A DNA stretch of 64,000 nucleotides from Chloracidobacterium sp. (GCA_025057975.1 JANWUV010000011.1:65555-129554), one strand, 5' to 3'. Positions 1-17,239 are shown, numbered from the stretch's first letter. Made by a program: numbers and translations. Notes: generated by a model not told the origin, from the sequence alone.

Positions 1-520
1 CGGTCGGCAGGCGTACCGTTGCGCCGATTTTCGCGCCATACCACGTGCAGAAGTCATTGGCGTCATGCCAGGAAACGTTCGTGACTGGTTGCATCGCTGC
101 GCCAACCGGGAAGGTACCATTCGTCCAGTCCTTTGGCGCAGCGTGGCGGGTGGCGGTGACAAACTCGTGGTACTGCTGATTGGTGACTTCCGTTTCCGAC
201 ATCCAGAAACTCCCAACTGCCACTTTGCGCGGCGGCAGACCGTCCACGCCGCCTAAAGCAACCACCCCGGCCGGAATCAGCACCAAGCCAATGACCGGGG
301 GCGACAGGGGGGCAGGCGGTGGGGGCGGCGTGGGCGGCGCAGCCGCCGGCGGCGGTGGCGGCGTAGGACGCGCAACTGGGGGCGGCGGTGACTGCCCGCC
401 GAAGAAAAACCACATTCCGCCCCCAAGGAGGATCGACAGCATCAAGCAAACAGCCGCCGCGACGCCCAACGCGATCAGCCGCGCGCTTTCCGACGGTTTT
501 TGGCGTGTCCGAAAGTTCAT
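1..520 (-). CDS. Membrane-anchored FGE-sulfatase (SUMF1-like) domain protein, N-terminal part; the gene continues past the window edge
   Basis: Not in the ORF track because it is open to the window edge. Own translation from the ATG at 520-518: MNFRTRQKPSESARLIALGVAAAVCLMLSILLGGGMWFFFGG (TM anchor), a Pro-rich linker (PPPPVARPTPPPPPAAAPPTPPPPPAP), then VLIPAGVVALGG..FWMSETEVTNQQYHEFV..PVTNVSWHDANDFCTWYG, the layout typical of the FGE-sulfatase fold. The start overlaps the upstream stop as ATGA (ATG 520-518, TGA 519-517). Confidence 0.6.
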   Translation of the reverse strand, partial: MNFRTRQKPSESARLIALGVAAAVCLMLSILLGGGMWFFFGGQSPPPPVARPTPPPPPAAAPPTPPPPPAPLSPPVIGLVLIPAGVVALGGVDGLPPRKVAVGSFWMSETEVTNQQYHEFVTATRHAAPKDWTNGTFPVGAAMQPVTNVSWHDANDFCTWYGAKIGATVRLPT

Positions 521-1164
521 TCAAGCGAAGTTTGACGCGCGTCACGCCGCTGGGTCTCATGCAGGTCGAGAAGCGCCTGTTCAATGACGCGCAACTGGGT
601 GTCAAGTTGAGCGTCCACAATACCCGACTCGCTCTCGAGGATACAGCCCCCAACTGAAACGCGAGTGTCGGGCACAATGTTGACGAACTGCCCCCGTCGG
701 AGTGTTTCGATCGCTTCGCGGTGACGCTCCAGCTTTGGTACGTCAGCCGGATTGACACAAATCGTAATGGCGCTCGCGTGTCGAATGTTGCGCATCGCCG
801 TCCGTACAATGTCGAGCAGGGTAGCGTCATGGGTTTCCAGTTCGCGCCCGACGATTTTTTCTGCAATCCGCAGAGCCAACCGCAGCACTTCTCGTTCGGC
901 GTCGGCGAGCATCATCTCGCGGCGGCGCTGGAGTTCAAGCAGGCGCGTTGTGAATTCCTTAAGTCCGGCTTCATAGCCGGCGGCGTACGCCTCGGCGCGA
1001 ATACGCTCGACCTCGCCTTTCGCTTCGGCGACCAGTCGTTCGGCTTCGGCGCGCGCTTCACTGAGCAGCCGCCGCGCCTCAGCGCGCGCCTCAATGACCG
1101 GACGCTTGACGACGCCGCCAGTCAGGGGAAGAAGTTGCAGCACGGAGGGTTTGACGACTTGCAT
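517..1164 (-). CDS. FliH/SctL family protein (T3SS ATPase stator/regulator)
   Basis: 215 aa. N-terminal charged coiled coil (EARAEARRLLSEARAEAERLVAEAKGEVERIRAEA). C-terminal block ITICVNPADVPKLE ... VGGCILESESGIVDAQLDTQLRVIEQAL matches the FliH/SctL C-terminal signature (GGC.iE.e.G.iDa.l). Confidence 0.75.
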   Translation of the reverse strand: MQVVKPSVLQLLPLTGGVVKRPVIEARAEARRLLSEARAEAERLVAEAKGEVERIRAEAYAAGYEAGLKEFTTRLLELQRRREMMLADAEREVLRLALRIAEKIVGRELETHDATLLDIVRTAMRNIRHASAITICVNPADVPKLERHREAIETLRRGQFVNIVPDTRVSVGGCILESESGIVDAQLDTQLRVIEQALLDLHETQRRDARQTSLE

Positions 1165-1179
1165 AGGGGCTAGAGGGCA

Positions 1180-2166
1180 TTACTCCGACGCCGGATTCCT
1201 TCTCGGCAAGTCGGACACAGTTCCGTTACGGTGATGTTGCGCCAGCCGGAGCACGTCTTGAAACAACTGCTGCCGGAGTTCTGGTCGGACGGCGACGGGC
1301 GGCGCATCCAGCCACTCTTGAAGGCGGCGGACGAGTTTGGGCGCCAGCTTTTGAAACAGGAACGTCAAGCGGTCGCCGTCGCAGCCGGCCGGCGCGGCGG
1401 TCATCACCACTTGCCAACCAAGAGTTGTTACTAGCTCCGGGTCGCGCTTACGCTGCGTCATCGCCGACTGGACAATTCGGCGGGCAAACTCACGGCGCGG
1501 CGCAGGCGGCGCTTTTGGCAGCGCGCGAAAGGCGGCGATTTGCTCAGCGATGGCGTGCGCGTCGGCTTCGGGAAAACGTCGGAGCAGCGCCGTTACGGCC
1601 TCGGTCGTCGGCAGGTCATAGCCAGCCAGGCCAATCTCCGCAACGCCGACCGCATGCGCTACGCGCTGTAACTCCGCCTCCGTTAGTTCGTCAAAAGGCG
1701 TTAGCGGGGCGATCTGGTCGGCGCTTACAAACTGCGCCAGGAATCGTCGCCGAACGGCGTTGAGGACTGGCGCGACCGGCGCAAGGTCATCCAAGCTCAG
1801 GTGTGTCTGGCTCTGGCGCAGCGCGCGCGCCACGGCCGTCCCCAGCGGAGCCGGCAGGGACGCCAGCAACAGCCGCTGGATATAGGCCGGCTCATCCCGC
1901 AGCGCGGCCGCAATGTGGGACGGATGAATACGTGGGTCGAGCGTCAAAGGTTGCTGCCGAATACGCCGCCGGAGTTCATCTAACGTCTGCGCCAACCAGG
2001 TTGTGAGCTTGCTTTCCTCCTGCGCACGCAGTTCTTGGTGGCGCTGCTCAAGTTTTCGGCGGTCGTCGTCCGGCGACAGCGCAAAGAGTTCGGACGGCGG
2101 GATTGGATTTTGTGTCGTGTTGCGTTCGTAGGCGAGGGCAAGCGCCAGAAGCCAGTCAGTTTGCAT
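1180..2166 (-). CDS. FliG/MgtE_N-like helical-repeat protein (candidate T3SS cytoplasmic component)
   Basis: 328 aa. IHPSHIAAALRDEPAYIQRLLLASLPAPLGTAVARAL resembles the FliG middle-domain EHPQ.iA.il..l.p..aa.vl..LP motif. A second helical repeat follows (ELTEAELQRVAHAVGVAEIGLAG...). It sits 15 nt upstream of the FliH/SctL-like gene, mirroring the flagellar fliG-fliH order. Confidence 0.45.
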   Translation of the reverse strand: MQTDWLLALALAYERNTTQNPIPPSELFALSPDDDRRKLEQRHQELRAQEESKLTTWLAQTLDELRRRIRQQPLTLDPRIHPSHIAAALRDEPAYIQRLLLASLPAPLGTAVARALRQSQTHLSLDDLAPVAPVLNAVRRRFLAQFVSADQIAPLTPFDELTEAELQRVAHAVGVAEIGLAGYDLPTTEAVTALLRRFPEADAHAIAEQIAAFRALPKAPPAPRREFARRIVQSAMTQRKRDPELVTTLGWQVVMTAAPAGCDGDRLTFLFQKLAPKLVRRLQEWLDAPPVAVRPELRQQLFQDVLRLAQHHRNGTVSDLPRRNPASE

Positions 2167-2346
2167 GAAACGGGAAACAGTCTTTTACCTTGGCGGAATT
2201 CATCACGCCGCCGGCATGCTATGCGCCAAGCGCGTCGGCCGATGCAAGCTTTTTTTGCCTCAGCGACCGGCGTTTCTGGTTCTTTGACCGGCTTTTCCAT
2301 CCCTGCTGAATCCACTTGATGAGGCCGCGACACACCGGGGCGCGCC

Positions 2347-3654
2347 CTAACGCCGGGGATAGAAATCATCCAAGCGGCGCTCATGCGGCTCGCCCAACAA
2401 GCCCATGTTCTGCGCCACCAGCATGGCGACGCAGGCGTCGCTGGTGACGTTCGCCACCGTACGGCACATATCCAGCGGGCGATCAATGGCGAAAATCAAC
2501 GCCAAACCTTCCTGCGGGATGCCGGCGGCGCCCAGCACGATGACGAGAACGATCAGGCCGGCGCTCGGCACGGCGGCCGCCCCAATCGAAGCCAGCGTCG
2601 CCGTCAGCAGGATGCTCAACTGATCGCCTAGATCGAGCGCAATGCCCAACACTTGCGCGATGAACACCGCCGCGACGCCTTGGTACAGCGCCGTGCCGTC
2701 CATATTCATCGTCGCCCCGATGGGCAAGACGAAACCAGCGACCTCTTCGTGAACGCCCAAATGCTCCTGCACGCGCTCCATTGTGACCGGCAATGTCGCG
2801 GCGCTTGAGCTGGTTGAAAAAGCTACCAACTGCGCCGGCAGTACGCCGCGCATGAAGAAGCGATAAGATTTTCCGGTTACAAGCCACACCAACACTGGAT
2901 AGAAGGCGAAAATTAGGACGGCAAGGCCGGCGACGACGCAGAGGGCGTATCGCAGGAGGCTGACGAGGATGTCAGCACTTGGCGATTCGGTAATCAGCGT
3001 CGCCAGCAGCGCCATGACGCCCACTGGCGCGGTCAGCATGACGAGATCAACCAGCCTAAGAATGACCTCGTTCAGCCCGTCGAAGATATCTCTGATAGGC
3101 TTAGCTTTCTCCTCAGCGATGAGAATCAGCCCGACGCCGATCAGGAGGGCGAAAAAGATCACTTGCAGCATCCGGCGGTTGTCAGTCGTCGCAGCGAACA
3201 CGTTGTCGGGGACAATATCCACAAGCGGCTGGAGCGGCCCTTTGTCTTGCTCCGACTTCGCCGTAGAAATGCGCCCCTTGGCTTCGTCGGCGTAGGCGCT
3301 TAGAAGTTTTTCACGGGTCGCTGGCGCCACGCCCGTGCCCGGTTTGACGAAATTAACGATGAGCAAACCAATAGCCACGGCCACAGCTGTCGTCAGCAAG
3401 TAGAGTGCCAGCGAACGCCCGCCCATCCGCGACAACTGGCTCAAGTCTTTCATGTCTGAGACGCCCTTGATGAGCGAGGCGATGATGAGTGGCACGGCGA
3501 TCATCTTGAGCAAGTTCATGAAGATCGTCCCAAAAGGCTTGATCCAGTACTTGACGAACTGCTGCGCACCGAGCCAGTCAGCGGCAAAGCCAACAATGAG
3601 TCCAGCGAGCATCCCGACCAAGATTTGCCAGTGCAGCGGGAATTTTTTCAGCAT
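2347..3654 (-). CDS. Dicarboxylate/amino acid:cation symporter (DAACS family, GltP-like)
   Basis: 435 aa polytopic protein. Family-typical segments include SSSAATLPVT, PIGATMNMDGTALYQ and DRPLDMCRTVANVTSD. Confidence 0.85.
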   Translation of the reverse strand: MLKKFPLHWQILVGMLAGLIVGFAADWLGAQQFVKYWIKPFGTIFMNLLKMIAVPLIIASLIKGVSDMKDLSQLSRMGGRSLALYLLTTAVAVAIGLLIVNFVKPGTGVAPATREKLLSAYADEAKGRISTAKSEQDKGPLQPLVDIVPDNVFAATTDNRRMLQVIFFALLIGVGLILIAEEKAKPIRDIFDGLNEVILRLVDLVMLTAPVGVMALLATLITESPSADILVSLLRYALCVVAGLAVLIFAFYPVLVWLVTGKSYRFFMRGVLPAQLVAFSTSSSAATLPVTMERVQEHLGVHEEVAGFVLPIGATMNMDGTALYQGVAAVFIAQVLGIALDLGDQLSILLTATLASIGAAAVPSAGLIVLVIVLGAAGIPQEGLALIFAIDRPLDMCRTVANVTSDACVAMLVAQNMGLLGEPHERRLDDFYPRR

Positions 3655-3845
3655 ATGGGCGCGGTGATTAATCCGGCGTGTGATGTCGAAGTTGCAGACC
3701 AGTTGAGGGCATCGTTTTTCTCAGAGCGAGGCCGAAAAGTAAAGCCACGCCGTGTACCGACAAGGCTTTCCAGCTTGCGGTCACGGACTTCCATCGGTAG
3801 CGTTTGACAAACGGATGCCTTCTGCTTGCGCGTGGACCCCAGCTC

Positions 3846-4364
3846 ATGCTCACCAAGCAGGATCACGAATGGTTACAGGGCGGTTTGTCGCTTGCCGCCG
3901 CCACTGGTTGGACGCCGGAAGAAGTTCGGCTGGTGACTGACTTGGGCTACAACTTGGCCGAGCAGGGGCGTCACGCAGAAGCTATTACGATTTTTGAAGG
4001 TCTGGCGGCGCTTGCGCCGGCGACTTTGTATTTTCAATCGGCGCTGGGTGCGCTCAAACTGCGCATCAAGGACTACGCCGGGGCGCTGCCGCATCTGAAT
4101 CGCGTGCTGGCGGCGACCCCGGACGACGCTGTGGCGCTGGTCAATCGTGGTGAAACACTGCTGCACTTGGGTGACTTGTCGAGCGCCCGCGCCGACTTGC
4201 AGCGGGCGGTGGCGTTGGTTCCCGACGCCGACCCGCCGCCGTACATTACGCGCGCCAAGGCGCTGTTGCTGGCGCTGGAACGAGGCTGGCAGCCGCTGGC
4301 GCGCGGGTTGCCTGACCCAGGTCGGCCCGAGAGTCGTCAGCTTGGCGACGGCTTCCAGTTGTGA
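3846..4364 (+). CDS. TPR protein, SycD/LcrH/CesD-like class II T3SS chaperone candidate
   Basis: Three TPR units. Clearly paralogous to the 23703-24161 product (shared G.T.E..., EQG, IFEGL, ALGAL, VNR.E, ADLQRA..L.P). The first ATG in the ORF is at 3846; the track start at 3804 is TTG. Confidence 0.6.
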   Translation: MLTKQDHEWLQGGLSLAAATGWTPEEVRLVTDLGYNLAEQGRHAEAITIFEGLAALAPATLYFQSALGALKLRIKDYAGALPHLNRVLAATPDDAVALVNRGETLLHLGDLSSARADLQRAVALVPDADPPPYITRAKALLLALERGWQPLARGLPDPGRPESRQLGDGFQL

Positions 4365-5284
4365 CAACGACGCGCAGACGTTCCCTTCGGCCATGGTGGA
4401 CAGCCGCCAAATGGTTGGCCCTACTCGTATTGCTGGCGCTGGCGGCGCACGCCGGCCATCTTCGTGCAGTCATCGCCGCCCTTGGCCGCGCTGACCGAAG
4501 CTGGATTGCAGCAGCGTTTGGGCTGGGCGCGGTCATGCTGGTTCTCCGGACGGCCAAGTGGCGGTGGTTGTTGGTACGGGTTCACCCGCAAACATCGTGG
4601 CTGACGGCGGCACGGTCGCTACTGGGAGGGATGGCGCTGGGACTTGTTACACCCGGTCGCGTTGGCGAGGTTGGACGCGCCGCTTTCTTACCGCCGGGCG
4701 TACGTCTGACGGCGGCTGGGTTGTTCATCATTGACCGCGCCGCCGACCTTGCGGCGCTTGGCGCAGCCGCCTGTTTGGGGACGCTGGGGGTTGCGCCCAC
4801 CACTTGGCGCTGGCCGCTGGCGTTGGCAGGCGTAGGTTGTGTTGGGATGGTCTTTGTGTTGCCGGTTGTGTTGTCGGCTGTCTTGGCGGCGCGGCGTCTT
4901 CCAGGTCGGCTGCGGGAAAAGCTTTGTCCGGCGGCGACGGCGTTGGCGCAGCTGCGCCGGCGGGACATCGCCGCCAACATCGCTGCCGGTCTAGCATTGA
5001 CGGCGTTGGATATCGTCTCGCTTTACGCGCTGGCGCGGGCATTCGAGCCGGTGCGCTTCGCTGTCGTCGCGTTTGCATTCCCTTGGATTGTGCTGACGAA
5101 TCTCGTCCCCGTTACCCCGGCCGGCGTCGGCGTTCGTGAAGGCGCAGCGGCGGGCATTCTCCAAGCTTACGGTGTCGCTCTCCCAACCGCCGTCAATGCG
5201 GCGCTATTGCTGTTTGCGATCAATACGCTGGCGCCGGCGCTGGTCGGGCTGGTCTGGATTGGTAAACGCTCCAGCGCAGCGTGA
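4361..5284 (+). CDS. UPF0104 / lysylphosphatidylglycerol-synthase-TM-region-like (flippase-like) membrane protein
   Basis: 307 aa, multiple TM helices, RTAKWRWLL motif typical of this family. The GTG start overlaps the upstream TGA by 4 nt (GTGA). Confidence 0.6.
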   Translation: MTTTRRRSLRPWWTAAKWLALLVLLALAAHAGHLRAVIAALGRADRSWIAAAFGLGAVMLVLRTAKWRWLLVRVHPQTSWLTAARSLLGGMALGLVTPGRVGEVGRAAFLPPGVRLTAAGLFIIDRAADLAALGAAACLGTLGVAPTTWRWPLALAGVGCVGMVFVLPVVLSAVLAARRLPGRLREKLCPAATALAQLRRRDIAANIAAGLALTALDIVSLYALARAFEPVRFAVVAFAFPWIVLTNLVPVTPAGVGVREGAAAGILQAYGVALPTAVNAALLLFAINTLAPALVGLVWIGKRSSAA

Positions 5285-5881
5285 TACGCGGTATGCGCAA
5301 TTGCAGACGGAGGCAAGCGCTTTTACACCCCAAAGTGAAAGTCGTGTGCCGCCAACGCCTCGGCAATCGGCCAGAGTCTGGCATAGCGGCGTGCGTCGCC
5401 AGTCAAACGGCGTGGCTTTGAGGCCGCAGGCACGATGGTTTCCACCACCAGCGCCTCCGCCTGTTCCCATAACAACCGCTCCCCTGCGCTGCAATATCCT
5501 GGCGGCACGTTGTGGTTGTGCCGCCAGCCCAAGAATTTATCGCTTGCCAACGTACATTGGCAGCGACAGAGCGGATGGCGTCGCTGCGAACGTCGGCGTT
5601 GCGCGCTCGCCTAAAACCTCGGCGACGAGCTTGCCCTGCGGGTCGCGCCGAATTTCTTCGTGGTTTTTTCTTCCGGCGAGTCGTTGCGCTAATAGGTGAT
5701 TGTGCTCGGCGCGAGGCTGGGTTGCTGCGAATCAGAAATCTCACTCACCCCCACAAGCGCAAAATCGCTGTCATCCACACCAAGCAGGGCTGAACAATTT
5801 CGACGACAAGCCGCTTGCGTTTGCCGCCGCAACCGGCGACGATGGCGTATCTTGTCCAATCCCCCTGACCGACCCCAACCA

Positions 5882-7804
5882 ATGGATTTCCCGACACGAG
5901 CCGCCAGGTTGCCGTGGCGCGGCCTCTTTCCAATCCTGTGGTTTGGCTTGACGCTGCTCGCTCACGGTCAAGCGCCGAATCCCGACGCCGAAGCCTCCGC
6001 GCCTATGCCCATCAAACTCGAACCTATGCCGCCCCGGTCGGGCTATGAGCCGCCCGCCGCCGCTGCCGCGCGTTCACTGACCGACAGCACCACTGCCGCG
6101 CCAAAAGCTTTTCTGACGCGCTGCGAGAAGACCGACTACGTTGAAACCGGCGACTACGCTGAGACGGTCGCGCTTTGGAAGAAAATGGCCGCTGCCTCGC
6201 CTTTCGCCGAGTTGCTTCCCATCGGCGACACGGCGCAGGGGCGGACGCTCTACGTACTGGTCGCCTCCAAAGACAAAGCCTTTACGCCACACCGCGCCGC
6301 CAAAACCCGAAAGCCCGTGGTGTTTATCCAAAACGGCATTCATCCGGGCGAAATTTCGGGCAAGGACGCGACCTCGATGCTCCTGCGCGACATTCTCATC
6401 ACGAAGCGCCACGCCGCGCTGCTTGACTCGGTGATCATTCTGGCGATGCCGGTTTTCAACGCCGACGGTCACGAAAACACCAGCCCTTGGCATCGCGTCA
6501 ACCAGAACGGCCCGCGCGAGATGGGCTTTCGCGCGACGGCGACGCGCCTCAACCTCAACCGCGACTACATGAAGGCTGATGCGCCCGAAATGCGCGCTTG
6601 GCTGCGGTTTTTCACCACCTGGAAGCCCGACTTCTTCATAGACAACCACGTGACGGACGGCATGGATCACCAGTACGACGTAACGCTTGACATGCCGACC
6701 GAGCAGAACACGTGGCCGACAATCGGCGCGTGGACGAAGGAGACGTTTCTGCCGAAGCTCTATGCGCGCTTGGAAGCTGACGGGCACGTGGTCGGCCCGT
6801 ACGCCGAGCCGCGCGATCCGGCCGACTGGTCAAAGGGCTTTGATGTCGGCGTGATTGAGCCGCGTTACTCAACCGGCTACGTAGCGTTGTGGCATCGCCC
6901 GGCGCTGCTGGTGGAGACGCACAGCCTCAAGTCGTACCGGACGCAAGTGTGGGCGCACTACGACCTCATGACGCATACGCTGGCGCTGGTCGGCGCGGAG
7001 GGCGCGCATTTGCGCGAGATGATTCGCGCCGCCGAAGCGGGCATGGCGGAACTCGCCGCCGCCGCCAAGCCGCTGTTTCTCGCCGGAACGCACGGCGACG
7101 CCGGGACGACCTTCACGTACAAGGGCGTCGCTTGGCGTGAGGAAACCAGCCTTGTCACCGGGCGTCCCGTCCGCGCGTACGAAAGCCGGCTCGTGGACAT
7201 CCCGACCAAGCTTTTCACCAAGCTCAAAACGACGGCGGCACCGACCGTCCCGGCAGGCTACCTCATTCCAGCGGAATGGACGGCGGTAGTGGACGTGCTC
7301 GCCGCGCATGGCGTCGAGATGAAGCGGTTAAAAAAGGTCACCACTGTGGATTGTGAAACCTATTGTCTGCGCGATCCTAAGTGGGCGACGCGCCCGTTCG
7401 AGGGCCGCGTGATGCTGACCAGTTTCACCATCCAGCGCGCCCGGACGACGAAAACCTTTCCTGCTGGGACGGTCTACGTGCCGATGACGCAACCGGCGGC
7501 GCGCGTCGCGTTCAACTGGCTGGAGCCTGAAGGGCCGGATTCGGCCGTCCGGTGGGGCTTGTTCAACACGATTTTCGAGCAGAAGGAGTACGCGGCGGAT
7601 TACGTTTTTGAGCCGATTGCGCGCGAAATGCTTAAGCGGAATCCAAAACTGCGCGCCGAGTTCGAGCGCAAGCTGGCGGAGGACGCCGATTTCGCGGCCA
7701 GTCCGCGGGCGCGCTTTCAGTTCCTCTACGAGCGGTCGCCCTACTACGAAACCGACAAAGACGCTTACCCGGTCGTCAGGGTTTTCGAGCCGCCGCTGCG
7801 GTGA
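5882..7804 (+). CDS. Secreted M14-family zinc carboxypeptidase
   Basis: GIHPGEISGKDA and NADGHEN zinc-binding-region motifs. Signal-peptide-like N-terminus from the ATG at 5882 (MDFPTRAARLPWRGLFPILWFGLTLLAHGQ). The upstream part of the track ORF looks non-coding. Confidence 0.8.
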   Translation: MDFPTRAARLPWRGLFPILWFGLTLLAHGQAPNPDAEASAPMPIKLEPMPPRSGYEPPAAAAARSLTDSTTAAPKAFLTRCEKTDYVETGDYAETVALWKKMAAASPFAELLPIGDTAQGRTLYVLVASKDKAFTPHRAAKTRKPVVFIQNGIHPGEISGKDATSMLLRDILITKRHAALLDSVIILAMPVFNADGHENTSPWHRVNQNGPREMGFRATATRLNLNRDYMKADAPEMRAWLRFFTTWKPDFFIDNHVTDGMDHQYDVTLDMPTEQNTWPTIGAWTKETFLPKLYARLEADGHVVGPYAEPRDPADWSKGFDVGVIEPRYSTGYVALWHRPALLVETHSLKSYRTQVWAHYDLMTHTLALVGAEGAHLREMIRAAEAGMAELAAAAKPLFLAGTHGDAGTTFTYKGVAWREETSLVTGRPVRAYESRLVDIPTKLFTKLKTTAAPTVPAGYLIPAEWTAVVDVLAAHGVEMKRLKKVTTVDCETYCLRDPKWATRPFEGRVMLTSFTIQRARTTKTFPAGTVYVPMTQPAARVAFNWLEPEGPDSAVRWGLFNTIFEQKEYAADYVFEPIAREMLKRNPKLRAEFERKLAEDADFAASPRARFQFLYERSPYYETDKDAYPVVRVFEPPLR

Positions 7805-8324
7805 GCTTTTCACTTTCCTGTGCCCGCGCACAGTCGTGGGTGCTCTGAACCGGCGGTTGGGGCGGCGCGTGACGCCGGTCGAGGAGCAAGCGCGCGATCC
7901 GGCGCTGGAGCAGTAGGGGTTGAGTTGGTGGTGGGAACAACGGCGGACGCCGCCCAACGCGCCTTCGTGTGGTTGCCGGAGTGGTGGGTAATGGAGCGAA
8001 GTTCGGCGCGGATGGCGTGCTTGCGGCAGTTGGCGCGTGTGTCAAGCGTTACTGGATTTTGGGTAGCCGGCACATTGTCATGTTGGTGATCCGATGCTGC
8101 GGGCATGGGTGAAAATAGCGGTTCAGCGGGGCAAGGTGCATAACACGCGCTGGATGCCGCTCACGAATCGGGTCGGCCCCGTCACCATGAAAGGTGTTCA
8201 CCGAGAGCAAGAGAACAACCACCGCCAAATCTTGTTCGTGCGCCACGGGCTTGCCACGCCGCCGGATTACTTGGATAGGTTCTGACTGACCCCACCCACA
8301 CAAGTCTGTACAAGGATGCTTTTA

Positions 8325-9200
8325 TCACTCCGGCGGCAGTCCCAACTGGGCGCGCAGGCGGGCGAGTTCTTCCAGCAGGGTCTCTTTCGCTTGTCGCTCC
8401 GCTGCAGCGCGAGCCTCGGCCTCTTGCGCGCGGGCTTCGGCTTCGAGCTTGGCCTGCCGTTCCGCTTCAGCACGGGCTTCGGCTTCGAATTTGGCCTGCC
8501 GTTCCGCTTCAGCACGCGCCTCCGCTTCCTTCAACCGCGCCTCCGCCGCCTCCTTCGCCGCCTGCTCCGCCAACAACCGCTCCAACTCCGCCCGCTGCAA
8601 ATCCTCCGCAAACACCCCCGCCAACACCTCGCTCACCGGCAACCGACACCCACCCAGCGCCTCCAACTCCACGACCTCGCCCTCGATATATGTCCGCTCC
8701 TCCAAGTACCGCCCCGTCGCCACATCCGGTTGCCCGTACCCCACTATGCACCGCCGCCGCCGATCCACCACCACGTACACTTCCACCCCGCGCCGCGCAT
8801 ACGCCTCCCGCTTCTTCCCATAGTCGTCCCGCCAGTTCTCACTCGCCACCTCCACCACTAACACCACCGACACACCTACCCGCAGCACCCCGGCTTCCTC
8901 CTCATCCGCCCCCAGCGCCGCATCCTCCCGCCGACACACCACCAAGTCCGGAATCAGCGCCATATACTCGTCAATCTGCACCCCCAACAGCGTCACCACG
9001 TACGGCAGCCTCTTCTCGCTGATGGCGCGCGTCAGGTAGGCCGCCAAGGCCAACACGATGAGTTGGTGGGCTTTGTTCGGTTGGGGCATCTCGACGGGGA
9101 CACCTTCGATGAGTTCATAGCGCACATCGGGTTCGCCGTAGTCTAAGAACTCCTCGAAGGTCATCAAGCGGGGCGGGGTGGCGGTCAACGGGGTGGACAT
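8325..9200 (-). CDS. Uma2-family (DUF820) putative endonuclease fused to a C-terminal EA/RQAK coiled coil
   Basis: From the ATG at 9200: MSTPLTATPPRLMTFEEFLDYGEPDVRYELIEGVPVEMPQPNKAHQLIV..., a typical Uma2 N-terminus. The C-terminus is repetitive: EAEARAEAERQAKFEAEARAEAERQAKLEAEARAQEAEARAAAERQAKE. Confidence 0.75.
   Translation of the reverse strand: MSTPLTATPPRLMTFEEFLDYGEPDVRYELIEGVPVEMPQPNKAHQLIVLALAAYLTRAISEKRLPYVVTLLGVQIDEYMALIPDLVVCRREDAALGADEEEAGVLRVGVSVVLVVEVASENWRDDYGKKREAYARRGVEVYVVVDRRRRCIVGYGQPDVATGRYLEERTYIEGEVVELEALGGCRLPVSEVLAGVFAEDLQRAELERLLAEQAAKEAAEARLKEAEARAEAERQAKFEAEARAEAERQAKLEAEARAQEAEARAAAERQAKETLLEELARLRAQLGLPPE
8432..8515. repeat. Tandem 42-bp duplication inside the Uma2 coiled-coil tail
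   Basis: gggcttcggcttcgaGCttggcctgccgttccgcttcagcac (8432-8473) is followed immediately by the same 42-mer with gaAT (8474-8515). That is 2 mismatches, encoding the 14-aa EAEARAEAERQAK(L/F) unit. Confidence 0.9.
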
Positions 9201-9793
9201 CGCTTGTGTACCTCCAAGGTCTGCGCGTGGTCTGCATGTGTGGGCGGCATCGCCCGTTTGGGGCGTGAGAAACATACCACGGACACGGTGGGTTGGTCGC
9301 TTCGGTGCCGGTTGTCTCAGCTTGGGAGAACTGAAAACATTTGGCGCGCTAGTACGAAGCGCCAGCGCGCGGCTGAGCGCCCTGTTCGAGGAACGGCAGT
9401 CCGGCGGCCAAGGCGTGGGACGGCCGGGCGCGTCAAGTTCACTTGACGGCCCCTTCGCAGTATGCGCCTTGCGCGCTCCTTGAAAAGCTGTCGCCTCGGC
9501 CGTGTGCCTCGACGTTAGGACAACGCCACCCTACACAGCAGAAAAGCCAAGCTATTCTCTGCCCACCATAGGCGAGGATGCGCTGTGTTGTCCTGTGTTG
9601 TCCACTGCGCGGGTTTGAAGGCTGTCACTGCCGCCGACTGCCAAGCCAGCGTTTGGCATAGAAGACAGCGCTAATCCCCACTGCATTGTCTTGGCAGTGA
9701 CTAACCCGCTGTTTGCGTGTGGCGGCGTTCACACTCTCCAGCCGTTGACGCGGTTCACGAAGCAGCATTACGCCGCCTAAGGCTGAAGATGTT

Positions 9794-12612: not shown

Positions 12613-14736
12613 CTACTCAGGCCGTTGCGCGCCTTCCGGAACAACCGTCACCACCACGCGGCGGTTGTTGCCGCCTGGCGCTTGGGCTGCCCGCTGATCG
12701 TCGAAGATGCGCAGTTCGATTCGGTTCGGATCTACGCCTTTACCGACGAGGTAAGCCCGGACATTGTCTGCACGCTTCCGCGCCGTACCGCGTTTTTCAC
12801 CCCGGTCGGCGTGGCCGTCAATGATGACCTGCGCAGTTGGGTCACTCTGCAGCCGCGTCACAACTTGGTCAAGCAACGCCTTGCACTGGTTGTCTACGCG
12901 AGCCACGTTACGGCGGAACGGCGGATTCGCCAGCGTACCGTCGCAAGCGACCGTGTAGGACTGCGGCGGCGGCGGCGGCGACAGAATTTCAATCGCCGTT
13001 GAAGCTTCACCTGTACACTTACCGTCGTCCACCGTCACAGTGACGACTACCCGACCGGCTGACAGCCCTGTCGTGTTAAGCGTCACGTTCGCGCCGCTAC
13101 CCTCAATCCGGCCGGCGGTCGTCGTCCAGCGGTAGGTCAGCGGATCATCGTCGGCATCACGCCCAACCGCCGAGAGACTGATCGGCGCATCCGAACCCTC
13201 TTTGATCTGCGTCGGCGAAGCCGTCACCGTCACCGTCGGGCAAGTGTTTTTCTCAATGGTCAACTCAACAGAAGCCGTCGCCGTCGCACAGCAGAGGTCG
13301 GACACCGTCACCGTAACGGTCGCCACGCCGGCCCGGTCAGTCGGTGGGACGTAGGTGACGTTCGGCCCCGTGCCTTCAATGCGGCCGACGCTAGCTGTCC
13401 AGTTGTAGGTCAGGTTGGTGTCGGAAGGATCGGGATCGCTTGCCACAGCCGTCAGCCGCGCTCGCTCGGTGGTCTTGAGCTTTGTCCGGTCGGAGGAAAG
13501 CGTAACCGTCGGCGGGCGGTTGTTAGTACACGGGTCGGGCGCTTCCACCGTCTGGACGCGCCGCCGGTAGCCGATGACTGCGTTGACCACAAAACCATTG
13601 ACATCGCCGCGATTTGAACCGCGTTCCGTGTTTGCATTGTTGAGCAGACGGCGGTAGCCGCCGCCAAAGCTAAAATGAACCGCCTTATCGTTGCCGGTTG
13701 GCGTAAACCGCGCGCCCACCGTCAAATCCAAGGGATTGACCGGGTTGAGATTAGGCGTGCCGCTGCCGTAATAAACGTTCGAGGTCAGCTCCCCAATTGC
13801 TTGGAAGTATTTGTTTACGGCTACGTCCACGGCCGCTGAAGCAATCAGGATGTTCCGGCGGTCGAGATAGCGGATGTTGCCCGCCTCCGGGTCGCCAGCT
13901 TTTGCAGCGCCGATATTGCCGGTGAAGGTGAAGCGTCCAGCGCGTACAGCTGGAACGAGGATCACGCCGTAATCCACCGCGCCGGGGCCGCTGCCGCGCA
14001 CAACACCGTTGCCCGTACCACGGAAGATGCCATTGGCGAATGCAGTCGGAATGTTGACAAAACCGACAATCGCCAAGCCAAACGGACTTTCAGAGTTGGT
14101 AAAGCGGAACTTTGCGCCCAAGGTCGTGTTCCCGCTGGTGTATTCGCTGCTCGCCAGAAATGGAAAATCATTCAGGTAGCCCGGCAACCGACCCACCAGA
14201 CGCTGGTTTGCGCCCGTACCAACAATGCGCGTCCCGCTCTGGACGAGACCCGGCAGGACGCCGCCGACGGCCGCGCCCGCGTTGGAAATGTTTGTCGTGC
14301 TGGGACCAATCAGGCCGACAAACGGCGCCCCAGCGGAACTGCCCGGACCCAGCGGCACGGGTCCAGCCTGGACGCCGGGAAAGCGCACGTTCGGCAGGAA
14401 GAAGCCACTAAGCTCAAGTCGCTGGTCGGCGACCAGTTGCTGCCGAAAAACGGAGGCGGCGAAGAACTCCAGCCGGTCGGTCAGGCCAACAGCCCCACTC
14501 ACAATTTGCTGGCTGATGTCCACGTTGCCCGGCTCACGATCAAAGTTATTGTAATAAGCCGCGATATTGAACTCGCCTCGCTTGAGCGTCGAGGCGTCAT
14601 AGACCGTAAACAAGCCCGTTCCGCCGGTGACAGTTGGGTTGAGCGGGCGGTCTTGCTCGCGCGCTGATTGCGCCAGACCCGTCGCGCTGCCCAAAAACAC
14701 GCAGGCAAATAGCGCAAGCCAAGTACGGTGTTTCAT
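12613..14736 (-). CDS. OmpA-family outer membrane protein: N-terminal barrel-like region, two Ig/PKD-like repeats, C-terminal OmpA domain
   Basis: C-terminus IIDGHADRGEKRGTARKRADNVRAYLVGKGVDPNRIEL is an OmpA_C peptidoglycan-binding domain. There are two homologous about 90-aa repeats (..LTYNWTASVGRIEGTGPNVTY.. / ..LTYRWTTTAGRIEGSGANVTL..). Start at ATG 14736 gives signal peptide MKHRTWLALFACVFLGSATGLAQS, with a ggaggga SD upstream. Confidence 0.8.
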   Translation of the reverse strand: MKHRTWLALFACVFLGSATGLAQSAREQDRPLNPTVTGGTGLFTVYDASTLKRGEFNIAAYYNNFDREPGNVDISQQIVSGAVGLTDRLEFFAASVFRQQLVADQRLELSGFFLPNVRFPGVQAGPVPLGPGSSAGAPFVGLIGPSTTNISNAGAAVGGVLPGLVQSGTRIVGTGANQRLVGRLPGYLNDFPFLASSEYTSGNTTLGAKFRFTNSESPFGLAIVGFVNIPTAFANGIFRGTGNGVVRGSGPGAVDYGVILVPAVRAGRFTFTGNIGAAKAGDPEAGNIRYLDRRNILIASAAVDVAVNKYFQAIGELTSNVYYGSGTPNLNPVNPLDLTVGARFTPTGNDKAVHFSFGGGYRRLLNNANTERGSNRGDVNGFVVNAVIGYRRRVQTVEAPDPCTNNRPPTVTLSSDRTKLKTTERARLTAVASDPDPSDTNLTYNWTASVGRIEGTGPNVTYVPPTDRAGVATVTVTVSDLCCATATASVELTIEKNTCPTVTVTASPTQIKEGSDAPISLSAVGRDADDDPLTYRWTTTAGRIEGSGANVTLNTTGLSAGRVVVTVTVDDGKCTGEASTAIEILSPPPPPQSYTVACDGTLANPPFRRNVARVDNQCKALLDQVVTRLQSDPTAQVIIDGHADRGEKRGTARKRADNVRAYLVGKGVDPNRIELRIFDDQRAAQAPGGNNRRVVVTVVPEGAQRPE

Positions 14737-14971
14737 TCTTTGTTCCCTCCTGGTCGCGTGACCAGTTGATATTGTTCCTACCTTGTCGCATCCGCACGAT
14801 GACAAAAAAGCGAACCAATACTTCCATACAAAACCCTTTCCAAGTTGGCTCGCTCCGTGCAACAACACGTTTGATGACAAAACTTGCGAGAGGCTATCAC
14901 AGAGAGATTCCAGAAACCAAGCCTCTCTACAGCCCGCCCTTAAGACCGACGAACTGAAACGCTCATTTGAC

Positions 14972-16252
14972 TTAGGCGTAGATGCCGCGCATTTTGGTTT
15001 CGTACGCCACGCGGTCAATGGCCAACATGTAAGCCGCCGTCCGCATGTTGACCTTGTGCTTCTCGGCGTAGCTCAACACATCGTTGAAGCTCGAAACCAT
15101 CGTGTCCTGTAGGCGCTCGTTGACGAAGTCTTCTTTCCAGAAGAAGCCCATGCGGTTTTGTACCCACTCAAAATAGGAAACCGTCACACCGCCAGCGTTG
15201 GCCAGAATGTCCGGGATGACGAAAACGCCTTTGCGTTCGAGTACTTCGTCCGCCGCCGCCGTCGTTGGGCCATTGGCGCCTTCACACAGAATGCGGCATT
15301 TAATGCGCTCGACGTTCTGGGTCGTAATTTGATTTTCTGTCGCCGCCGGTATCAGTACTTCACAGTCGAGTTCGAGCAGTTCGGCGTTGGTGATGAGTTC
15401 ACCGCCGCCAAAGCCTTCAAAGGTTTTGTGCTTGCGTAGGTGCGCCAGCGCCGCCGGGATGTCGAGGCCGTTGGGGTTATAGAGGCCGTGCCGAATTTCC
15501 GAAATGCCGATGACCTTGAAACCGGCTTCGTGCAGCAAGGTGGCCCCAATGCCTCCAACATTACCCGCGCCTTGGACGACGACGCGCGTTTCCTGAGGCT
15601 TGAGACCGAACTTCTTACACGCCTCCTGCGTGACGAAAAGCAGCCCGCGACCAGTCGCCTCCCGTCGCCCCCGCGAGCCGCCGAGTTCAACTGGTTTGCC
15701 GGTGACAACCGCGTTGACCGTATGCCGGGCATGCATGGAGTAGGTGTCCATGACCCACGCCATAATCTGTTCGTTGGTGTTCATGTCAGGCGCAGGTACG
15801 TCGCGTTCCGGACCGATGATGTCCAGAATCTCTGAGGTATAGCGCCGGGTGAGCCGCTCCAGCTCGGTTAGCGACATCTTTTGCGGGTCGCACACAATGC
15901 CGCCCTTGCCGCCGCCGTACGGAATGTTGACCACGGCGCACTTCCACGTCATCCATGCCGCCAGTGCGCGTATTTCATCCAGCGTTACATCAGGCGCGTA
16001 ACGAATGCCGCCTTTGGCCGGGCCACGGGCAAAGTTGTGTTGCACCCGGTAGCCGACAAAGACCTCATAGTGGCCGTCATCCATCAGGGTTGGGATGTAA
16101 ACGGTCATTTCGCGCGTCGGATGGCGCAGAATGCGGTAAATGTTCGGGTCTAAGTCGAGCAGCTTCGCCGCGTTGTCAAAACGCGACATCATAGACTCAA
16201 ATGGGTTGTCCTCTTTGAAACTGCGGGCGTCATCAACGAAGGCGTTGGGCAT
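14972..16252 (-). CDS. gdhA: Glutamate dehydrogenase (Glu/Leu/Phe/Val dehydrogenase family)
   Basis: [17 protein letters not shown] and VVQGAGNVG motifs. Start at the internal ATG (MPNAFVDD...) is preferred but uncertain. Confidence 0.9.
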
Positions 16253-16287
16253 GGCTGATTCCTCACGAAAGATGGCGTCGGGATGGT

Positions 16288-17142
16288 TCACAGATCGGAC
16301 CGCTCGGCTTCCGTGCCGTTGAGTGAGCCGCTGCGGAAGCCCTCAAGGTCCAAGGTAATGAAGGTAAACCCAAGCGGTTTGAGCGCCGCAACAAGGCGCG
16401 CAGCCATAGCTGGGTCAAGTGCGCGCGGCAGTTCCTCCGGTGCAATCTCAATGCGCGCTAACCGGTCATGATGACGCAGACGAACTTCACGGAACCCCAG
16501 CGCGCGCAGCGCCTCTTCGCCCCGTTCAATCGTTGTCAGCTTGCCAATGGTCACTGGCTGTCCGTAGGGAATACGCGACGCCAGACACGGCGACGCTGGC
16601 TTGTCGGCGGTCGGCAGTCCCCAGTACCGCGACCGCTCCCGAATATCGGCCTTGGTGAAGCCAAACCGCGCTAGTGGACTGGCGACGCCCGCTTCGGCGG
16701 CGGCGCGGCGGCCGGGACGCACATCCTTCAGATCATCGGCGTTGGTTCCGTCGCATATGACGGTTGCGCCATACTGCGTCGCCAAGGCGCACAACCGTGT
16801 GAAGAGTTCCTGTTTGCAGAAATAGCACCGGTCGGGCGGATTGGCGGCGTAGGCGGGATTGTCAAGTTCGTGCGTGTCCAGAAAGACATGACGCAACCTA
16901 TAGCGCGTCACAAACTGCGTTACGGCAGATTGCTCGGTAGCTGCGAGACTTGGACTTCGCCCAGTCACAGTTAGCGCGCGCTCGCCAAGCTCTTGTCCGG
17001 CGACAAAGGCCAGATAACTACTGTCCACACCGCCCGAAAATGCGATCAGCACGGAGCGCGCCTCACGCAGCCAGGCGCGCAAAGCGTTTTCCTTGTCGGC
17101 GGCTGTGGTTGAAAGCGGCAGAGATGACAAATTGGGGTCCAC
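16288..17142 (-). CDS. larE: PP-loop ATP-utilising enzyme, LarE-like sulfur transferase family
   Basis: [17 protein letters not shown] is an SGGxDS PP-loop. Size of about 280 aa and a conserved Cys-containing CYFCK segment fit the family. Confidence 0.65.
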
Positions 17143-17239
17143 GAAAAGCCCGGCCTCATTGGTTGAGGATGCGTCAAGCGTGCGAAATCATACGCCCGCC
17201 TCTGATTGGCGTTCAAGCCTTGGTCTGTCCGCTGTTCGG

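Follow-up and report, generated by a model that had tools for sequence, protein, structure and literature searches.

The adaptor, SctL and FGE-fold genes of Chloracidobacterium

Type III secretion systems (T3SSs) are known mainly as flagella and as the injectisomes of host-associated bacteria. Here, we describe T3SS genes in a 64-kb stretch of DNA from Chloracidobacterium (Acidobacteriota, class Blastocatellia), which we refer to as the window. The window has a G+C content of ~61%, and homologues of its proteins carry the name Chloracidobacterium. Members of this genus are non-motile, and electron microscopy detected no flagella (PMC8245765, PMC12816986). Three genes lie on the minus strand at the left edge of the window. 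They encode a 328-amino acid adaptor of the FliG/SctK type, the ATPase stator SctL, and a membrane protein with the fold of the formylglycine-generating enzyme (FGE). The adaptor gene and sctL are 15 nt apart in the window and 13–27 nt apart in other Chloracidobacterium species. The FGE-fold gene begins before sctL ends, its start codon sharing the tetranucleotide ATGA with the sctL stop codon, and the FGE-fold open reading frame (ORF) runs off the edge. An initial annotation had recorded the short spacer, the overlap, and the truncated ORF, all of which are borne out by the sequence. It had also placed a GltP-type transporter upstream, where an MS-ring gene would be expected. The gene in that position, separated from the adaptor ORF by 180 nt, encodes a transporter of the SDF family; its best NCBIfam match is GltP, with a score under the cut-off of the GltP model.

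The 215-amino acid protein is SctL, in agreement with its earlier assignment to FliH/SctL. It exceeds the cut-offs of PF02108 (80.9 bits, E 1e-22, versus 24.1), TIGR02499 (SctL; 102.9 bits versus 78.7), and PF06635 (30.1 bits versus 23.3). The protein is 47–51% identical to the SctL proteins whose genes precede sctN in related bacteria.

When used alone, the 328-amino acid protein has no Pfam or NCBIfam match at E ≤ 1, so the gathering scores of the FliG domains are not reached. Nothing significant appeared among PDB sequences, and a word-indexed search returned Chloracidobacterium orthologues only. A profile built from 10 of these orthologues was run against 1.84 billion representative proteins and revealed a family of 147 clusters (50% identity) of 300–420 amino acids, 120 of which match at E ≤ 1e-10. 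Among 104 family members, Pfam FliG_M matches 25 (best E 4.4e-7), FliG_C matches 11 (best E 3.4e-7), and YscK matches one at E 1e-3. The family consensus reaches the Pfam YscK (SctK) model with 22.5 bits (E 9.3e-5; cut-off 22) in an alignment that places residues 166–316 on model positions 53–201 of 209. All five PDB sequence-profile matches of the family are FliG, each of them weak (E 0.19–0.99).

Profile-profile comparison with hhalign extends this relationship. The 104-sequence family aligns with a profile of nine true FliG proteins, taken from E. coli and plasmid records, over 193 columns (E 3.5e-5, probability 71.6%). Adaptor residues 58–290 fall on residues 90–294 of E. coli FliG, a stretch that spans its middle and C-terminal domains; the alignment leaves the first 57 adaptor residues unpaired with FliG_N. 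Glu92, invariant in the family, coincides with the invariant Glu125 of the EHPQR region of FliG; by eye, the charges of the FliG torque helix are not kept in this alignment. Comparison of the family with E. coli FliG alone was uninformative (E 0.1), and a tblastn search with the family consensus gave no match in a plasmid collection that contains no Chloracidobacterium record.

AlphaFold2, supplied with the 104-sequence alignment, predicts an all-helical protein of 16 helices (pLDDT 92.5, pTM 0.81); the 10 Chloracidobacterium orthologues by themselves yielded an unusable model (pLDDT 48). The best 11 Foldseek matches of the predicted structure in the PDB are all FliG, with probabilities of up to 0.96. 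These matches are weak (E 0.02–0.4, TM-scores 0.18–0.28), a plausible consequence of the interdomain flexibility of FliG. The 50 Foldseek matches listed do not include an SctK structure. In a preprint, a chlamydial SctK candidate is reported to have structural similarity to the FliG, YscK, and OrgA/MxiK families (10.1101/2025.03.14.643159).

Together, these comparisons establish a remote relationship of the adaptor to FliG and SctK. The term FliG-like used in the initial annotation is defensible for the family profile and the fold, but not for the protein by itself, which matches nothing. Taken literally, the failure in profile searches that the initial annotation had named as a refutation thus applies to the single protein. 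Because the family consensus also reaches the YscK cut-off, FliG/SctK-type adaptor is the more accurate name. A narrower adaptor alignment, used in the search for related loci, matched solely Pyrinomonadaceae/Blastocatellia, and the adaptor gene lies between sctJ and sctL in every relative with a visible upstream gene. The 328-amino acid protein is probably the ring-to-pod adaptor of a Blastocatellia T3SS.

Extension of the sequence beyond the window, which had been proposed earlier, completed the third gene. Logan contigs with an identical SctL (L001) encode an FGE-fold protein of 315 amino acids; it matches PF03781 (FGE-sulfatase) with 153 bits (E 1.5e-44) at full length and with E 2.7e-17 over the 173 residues encoded in the window. 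The protein begins with a basic N-terminus (MNFRTRQKPSESAR) followed by one transmembrane helix without a lipobox, a proline-rich linker (residues ~43–75), and the FGE-sulfatase domain. Full-length orthologues, some of which are named Pyrinomonadaceae, are 41–49% identical and share this transmembrane-linker-FGE build. Among 13 orthologues, the cytoplasmic tail comprises 0–20 residues and is poorly conserved, and the transmembrane helix is strongly conserved with seven invariant residues. It is a single-pass protein of the inner membrane whose FGE-fold domain presumably faces the periplasm.

All 13 orthologues lack cysteine between the motifs KGGS and GFRY. In human SUMF1 and bacterial FGEs, this interval near the C-terminus holds the two copper-binding cysteines required for catalysis. 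Judging from these residues, the FGE-fold domain appears to be catalytically dead. The scores of the protein to NCBIfam enzyme equivalogs are all far under their cut-offs, and its best NCBIfam match is PorK/GldK (TIGR03525; E 1e-25). The gene that follows encodes a TPR protein with a Sec-type signal peptide, as read from its sequence. Because of this signal peptide, the topology of the FGE-fold protein, and the loss of the cysteine pair, the two proteins most likely have a non-enzymatic function in the periplasm.

A database gene call for the FGE-fold protein begins at Met27 (P0163, 289 amino acids), which would abolish the overlap with sctL. The ATG at position 520 appears to be the better start because R14, A21, and C25, all before Met27, are invariant in the 13 orthologues (41–80% identity) and because the ATGA junction is retained in three Chloracidobacterium species. 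The junction GAATGAAC is identical in these species (L001, L008, and L010), in which synonymous sites are near saturation (dS 0.9–1.3).

Between the three species, pairwise dN/dS for the adaptor, sctL, FGE, TPR, and transporter genes is 0.07–0.16 at dS of ~0.7–1.7 (adaptor, 0.13–0.16; sctL, 0.07–0.16; FGE, 0.10–0.16), and the reading frames are intact. Thus, all of these genes are under purifying selection. The adaptor, sctL, FGE, and TPR genes presumably form one operon.

Two further T3SS genes lie ~18 kb from the adaptor gene. SctV, which is part of the same T3SS as the adaptor and SctL, scores 729 bits against TIGR01399 (SctV; cut-off 692) and 593 bits against FlhA (cut-off 772). The gene directly upstream encodes a SctD-like protein whose FHA domain is N-terminal and whose transmembrane helix is C-terminal. 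This protein matches PF16697 (Yop-YscD_cpl) with E 1.4e-6, under the gathering score, and the same sctD-sctV pair occurs in Pyrinomonadaceae clusters.

Gene order in relatives and the location of sctN

The related loci that we compared come from metagenome-assembled genomes (MAGs) of Pyrinomonadaceae/Blastocatellia and from metagenomic contigs; in some of them, the contig ends within the locus or an insertion precedes sctN. Several of the MAG loci and further metagenomic loci have the order sctJ-adaptor-sctL-sctN. Thus, in relatives the ring gene precedes the adaptor gene and the ATPase gene follows sctL, just as the initial annotation had expected for the two sides of the Chloracidobacterium pair. 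The contig L006 also contains sctV, an FHA-domain sctD-like gene, a small TPR gene, sctU, and the gene for an ECF sigma factor.

In the metagenomic locus L039, which was found independently through SctN, sctN lies exactly between sctL and the FGE-fold gene. Elsewhere the FGE-fold gene follows sctO (L019) or an ECF sigma-factor gene (L020, L030, and L031), so that its upstream neighbor is sctO, a sigma-factor gene, or sctN (Table 1). Context look-ups of FGE orthologues fell in T3SS clusters in all four cases that gave a result. Across five contexts outside the genus, the TPR gene always comes next and is followed by sctP where the contig is long enough. The order adaptor-sctL-FGE-TPR is kept in three Chloracidobacterium species with a different downstream flank in each, which answers the earlier question of whether the arrangement is conserved in related genomes; in C. 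aggregatum, this order continues with an sctP-like gene (Pfam Flg_hook).

The FGE-fold and TPR genes are therefore linked to the T3SS, and the block FGE-TPR-(SctP) travels with it in every arrangement seen. Contact between sctL and the FGE-fold gene, together with the ATGA overlap, was seen only in Chloracidobacterium. The earlier proposal of a functional tie between a stator and an FGE-fold protein thus stands in part: the association reaches beyond the genus, but it is with the T3SS machine as a whole and not with SctL specifically, and the contact with sctL is explained by relocation of sctN. The pairing had been thought undescribed, and we found no paper that links FGE-fold proteins with T3SSs.

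The window and the 10 kb adjoining it on the left contain neither sctN/fliI nor sctJ/fliF. The ATPase gene is solitary in Chloracidobacterium, as observed in strain CP2_5A, where it lies 5 kb downstream alone among unrelated genes, and in three metagenomic loci of 95% identity. The ATPase of CP2_5A passes the SctN equivalog (634 bits versus a cut-off of 605), and solitary Chloracidobacterium SctN is 75–80% identical to the cluster-borne SctN of relatives. The fliI/sctN paralog that the initial annotation had suggested looking for thus exists in that strain and in those loci; it was not located in the window's own genome. C. thermophilum has been reported to possess export-gate genes without most genes of the flagellum or injectisome (PMC6456723).

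We place this system near the boundary between flagellar and non-flagellar T3SSs because SctV, SctN, SctR, and SctL pass Sct (non-flagellar) equivalog cut-offs, but the SctU and SctT homologues pass the FlhB and FliR cut-offs, respectively, and fliO is present (L019). The SctJ proteins of relatives are short and of lipoprotein type. The annotated genes of the clusters examined contain no match to a flagellar rod, hook, or filament family and no secretin domain; no genome-wide search for secretins was made. Hints of needle or rod proteins are weak, namely T3SS_needle_F in L031 and T3SS_basalb_I (E 0.2) in L020.

Table 1 Coordinates and order of the T3SS genes and neighboring features in the window and in related loci (L numbers).
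Sequence	Feature	Position (nt)	Strand	Basis
Window	FGE-fold ORF, first 173 codons of 315-aa protein, runs off left edge	1–520	-	PF03781
Window	ATGA overlap, SctL stop (TGA 519–517) / FGE start (ATG 520–518)	517–520	-	sequence reading
Window	SctL/FliH, 215 aa, stator/linker of T3SS ATPase	517–1164	-	PF02108, TIGR02499
Window	Spacer, adaptor stop codon to SctL start codon, 15 nt	1165–1179	-	sequence reading
Window	FliG/SctK-type adaptor of T3SS sorting platform, 328 aa	1180–2166	-	family profiles, predicted fold, gene order
Window	SDF-family transporter	2347–3654	-	PF00375, E 4e-124
Window	186-aa TPR and 307-aa LPG_synthase_TM proteins, 4-nt overlap	3804–5284	+	
Window	Uma2-family putative restriction endonuclease, 316 aa	8325–9275	-	PF05685, E 7e-31
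Window	SctV (FHIPEP export-gate protein)	19968–22121	-	PF00771, E 2.5e-204
Window	SctD-like protein	22161–23348	-	PF00498, E 4e-11
Window	TPR protein, 163 aa	23670–24161	+	
Window	Coiled-coil-looking protein, 232 aa	24470–25168	+	
Window	Coiled-coil-looking protein, 136 aa	25206–25616	+	
L039	sctJ	454–1644		
L039	adaptor	1667–2749		
L039	sctL	2777–3406		
L039	sctN	3414–4718		
L039	FGE	5000–5953		
L039	TPR	6082–7482		
L019	sctO-FGE-TPR-TPR-sctP-sctQ-fliO-sctR-sctS-sctT			
L020, L030, L031	ECF sigma-FGE-TPR-sctP, divergent from adjoining sctJ-adaptor-sctL			
L006	~614-aa protein after sctN	13328–15172		
L008	444-aa protein after sctV (C. aggregatum)	5450–6784		
L016	Large LysM-repeat protein	3969–5624		
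L017	Large LysM-repeat protein	7629–9446		
L031	Large LysM-repeat protein	13376–15289		
L006	Toxin-like gene(s)	15388–17217		
L020	Toxin-like gene(s)	2934–3860		
L030	Toxin-like gene(s)	2858–3784		
L031	Toxin-like gene(s)	113–1320		
L052	~900-aa ORF with FGE-like domain, just upstream of sctJ	4113–6815		

Several neighboring genes deserve mention. Near the sctD-like gene and sctV of the window lies a gene for a 163-amino acid TPR protein, which in length resembles T3SS class II chaperones. It is followed by genes for two paralogous, coiled-coil-looking proteins without a confident family, whose only hint is a weak FliD_N match (E 0.017). These three genes are candidates for a chaperone and secreted substrates, and similar small genes lie beside sctD in L006 and L008. 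The 444-amino acid protein encoded after sctV in C. aggregatum has no Pfam match and no counterpart in the window; in L009 its gene is interrupted by an IS605-type transposase (OrfB_IS605). In five Pyrinomonadaceae loci (L006 and L012–L015), a conserved, lineage-specific, T3SS-linked protein of ~614 amino acids without a family match is encoded after sctN. A Pfam scan of conserved neighbors (the 614-, 224-, 444-, 455-, and 187-amino acid proteins) returned nothing usable.

Large LysM-repeat proteins are encoded inside three of the T3SS clusters. Their genes lie directly after sctL in L016 and L017, in the latter between sctL and sctN, and after sctP in L031; SLT lytic transglycosylase genes are nearby in L020, L030, and L031. 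These LysM and SLT proteins are probably peptidoglycan-remodeling helpers of the machine. Toxin-like genes adjoin four clusters and encode Peptidase_M91 (NleD-type) with HemolysinCabind repeats, phospholipase-like proteins, and RNAse_A_bac together with a CdiI_2 immunity protein. As possible effectors, their products hint at a role against other microbes. The metagenomic cluster L052, which is GC-rich and of a different lineage, contains an ORF with a domain that matches the Pyrinomonadaceae FGE protein with E 2.5e-19; it may represent an independent second case of an FGE fold tied to a T3SS.

Divergent from the transporter gene are overlapping genes for a 186-amino acid TPR protein and an LPG_synthase_TM protein. 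The TPR gene keeps its position in three Chloracidobacterium species; the LPG_synthase_TM gene stands beside it in C. aggregatum as well as in the species of the window, whereas strain CP2_5A does not have it there. The window also encodes a putative restriction endonuclease of the Uma2 family (Table 1).

Origin of the arrangement and role of the FGE-fold protein

On balance, we favor the interpretation that the adaptor-sctL-FGE-TPR genes are a rearranged piece of a T3SS widespread in Blastocatellia in which the FGE-fold protein is a conserved accessory and sctN has been relocated. The adaptor would connect the SctQ pods with the inner-membrane ring, which is composed of SctJ and the FHA-domain protein SctD, and SctL would tie these pods to the ATPase SctN. 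The ancestral gene order may have been sctJ-adaptor-sctL-sctN-FGE-TPR, as found in L039. In the Chloracidobacterium lineage, sctJ and sctN would have left the locus, and sctN now stands alone elsewhere. Because sctN moved away, sctL would have come to abut the FGE-fold gene; the 4-nt overlap would then have formed and been retained. Gene relocation thus explains the presence of an FGE-fold gene in the place of the ATPase gene, and departure of sctN and sctJ is the simplest reading of the locus. By analogy with PorK of the type IX secretion system (T9SS) or with the periplasmic TPR scaffolds of some flagellar motors, the FGE-fold and TPR proteins may form a periplasmic accessory that acts as a scaffold or anchor of the basal body.

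The company of sigma-factor genes raises the question of whether the FGE-fold protein is instead a sensor whose periplasmic domain receives a signal and which works with an ECF sigma factor as an unconventional anti-sigma factor or co-regulator of T3SS genes. In L020, L030, and L031, a Sigma70_r2/r4 gene in the same orientation immediately precedes the FGE-fold gene, with the called genes overlapping in L031, and a sigma gene of the same type adjoins sctJ in L004 and L006. Anti-sigma factors are usually single-pass proteins with an outward-facing domain, and FGE-fold domains also serve as extracellular modules of bacterial kinases, both of which count in favor of such a role. We nevertheless regard it as unlikely. 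In Chloracidobacterium, L019, and L039, the FGE-fold gene has no sigma gene as a neighbor, and its invariant partner is the TPR gene (with sctP where the contig shows it), not a sigma gene. Moreover, the cytoplasmic N-terminus of 0–20 poorly conserved residues is too short for a known anti-sigma domain, and a classical anti-sigma factor is ruled out on that ground. Hardest to credit is an enzymatic role, with the protein acting in the periplasm as an FGE or related oxidase on a component or substrate of the T3SS. The strength of the PF03781 match, together with database names that assign the homologues to SUMF1/EgtB/PvdO-family enzymes, would suit an enzyme; the missing cysteines in all 13 orthologues, the low scores to enzyme equivalogs, and the lack of a DinB-type domain as found in EgtB or OvoA speak against one. 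Absence of the cysteine pair rules out a true FGE.

An unrelated FGE-TPR cassette could also have come to lie beside a T3SS remnant by chance, without a functional tie. FGE-fold proteins are abundant (1066 matches at E ≤ 1e-10), T3SS genes of Chloracidobacterium are scattered among housekeeping genes, and the unrelated LysM gene inserted after sctL in L016 and L017 indicates that the site tolerates insertions. Such a coincidence is improbable given that full-length FGE orthologues (41–47% identical and of the same build) occur in five differently arranged T3SS contexts outside the genus with TPR always following, that the module persists in three Chloracidobacterium species despite a changing downstream flank, and that selection on its genes is strongly purifying. 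The same constraint, with intact frames, makes it very improbable that the locus is a remnant of a flagellar fliG-fliH cluster in a lineage that lost motility, even though the genus is non-motile and without flagella (PMC8245765, PMC12816986), the gene order mirrors fliG-fliH, and relatives have fliO as well as FlhB-type and FliR-type scores that pass flagellar cut-offs. Against a flagellar origin of this kind, SctV, SctN, SctR, and SctL pass non-flagellar equivalog cut-offs, the system includes an SctJ that is short and of lipoprotein type as well as an FHA protein resembling SctD, and rod, hook, and filament families are without a match among the annotated cluster genes examined. A relic in the course of decay is ruled out by dN/dS of ~0.1.

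One can speculate further that the system is a surviving intermediate between flagellum and injectisome, in which the FGE-fold and TPR proteins form a new envelope-spanning or anchoring structure in place of a secretin. Such an intermediate would have kept FliO and a FliG-derived adaptor that bridges FliG and SctK, alongside an SctD-type FHA ring protein and non-flagellar SctV and SctN. The RNase gene with its immunity gene, the phospholipase-like gene, and the NleD-like protease nearby would hint at use against other microbes. We consider this scenario possible but doubtful.

Several observations weigh against the rearranged-T3SS interpretation that we prefer. Homology between the adaptor and FliG is remote, as seen in the weak Foldseek scores and in an hhalign probability of 72% rather than >95%. 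A promoter and terminator scan of the putative operon found nothing above chance. When the window and the Chloracidobacterium loci examined were scanned with hidden Markov models built from the loci, sctJ, sctQ, sctO, and sctRSTU were not detected, a result that is not evidence of absence; similarly, none of the 120 listed among the 152 matches of a 5-sequence SctJ profile is named Chloracidobacterium. For the retention of export-gate genes in the genus, the published statement (PMC6456723) is the sole source. Finally, the score of the FGE-fold protein to PorK/GldK, 90.9 bits, is far under the cut-off of 350, and the scaffold role is drawn solely from topology, loss of catalytic residues, and analogy.

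These findings point to an under-described acidobacterial T3SS that includes an adaptor bridging FliG and SctK, fliO, and a conserved, probably periplasmic FGE-TPR block. A conserved T3SS under selection is present here in free-living, non-motile Acidobacteriota, including a phototroph. Flagellar and injectisome traits are mixed in this system, and the adaptor joins FliG and SctK at the profile level, so that the step from FliG to SctK becomes directly testable. The FGE-fold membrane protein, apparently dead as an enzyme, and the probably periplasmic TPR protein are candidates for hitherto undescribed parts of the envelope, for which PorK of the T9SS offers a parallel. In these genomes, genes that now bear the labels "hypothetical", "DUF2336", or "SUMF1/EgtB/PvdO family nonheme iron enzyme" can be reannotated as T3SS-associated.

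Comparison with known secretion systems and enzymes

The FGE-fold protein shares the Pfam FGE-sulfatase domain (153 bits) with SUMF1, the formylglycine-generating enzyme, but lacks the catalytic cysteine pair in all orthologues and has no sulfatase gene nearby. PorK/GldK, the ring lipoprotein of the T9SS, is its best NCBIfam match and places a non-catalytic, periplasmic FGE fold in a secretion machine. Unlike PorK/GldK, the protein scores 90.9 bits against a cut-off of 350, is anchored by a transmembrane helix rather than a lipid, is ~100 residues shorter, and is linked to a T3SS.

Like the adaptors FliG and SctK (YscK, OrgA/MxiK), the 328-amino acid protein is encoded between the inner-ring gene and fliH/sctL in relatives. 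It is all-helical and of similar length, its profile aligns to the middle and C-terminal domains of FliG, and its consensus reaches the YscK cut-off. It differs in that the protein alone matches neither model, that its N-terminal 57 residues fall outside FliG_N, and that the torque-helix charges are not kept. A further difference from FliG is that this system belongs to a non-motile organism and has an SctD-like FHA protein, the partner of SctK that is absent from flagella. SctL resembles its counterparts in the FliH/SctL-FliI/SctN pair by passing the family cut-offs and, in relatives, by being followed directly by sctN; in Chloracidobacterium, sctN is unlinked and solitary, and the sctL stop codon overlaps the start of a membrane protein gene.

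Abby and Rocha found non-flagellar T3SSs only in Proteobacteria, Chlamydiae, and Verrucomicrobia in 2012, and the early-branching "Myxo" non-flagellar T3SS of Myxococcales in their study is without FliG (PMC3459982). Among the Myxo and Chlamydiales systems (PMC3459982) there are precedents for a free-living, non-flagellated host and for the lack of a secretin; the clusters examined here likewise showed none. As in Chlamydia, the loci are scattered, and a further likeness to these systems is that the genes are conserved and selected, not decaying. In contrast, the present system is acidobacterial, keeps a FliG-like adaptor and fliO, and adds the FGE-TPR block.

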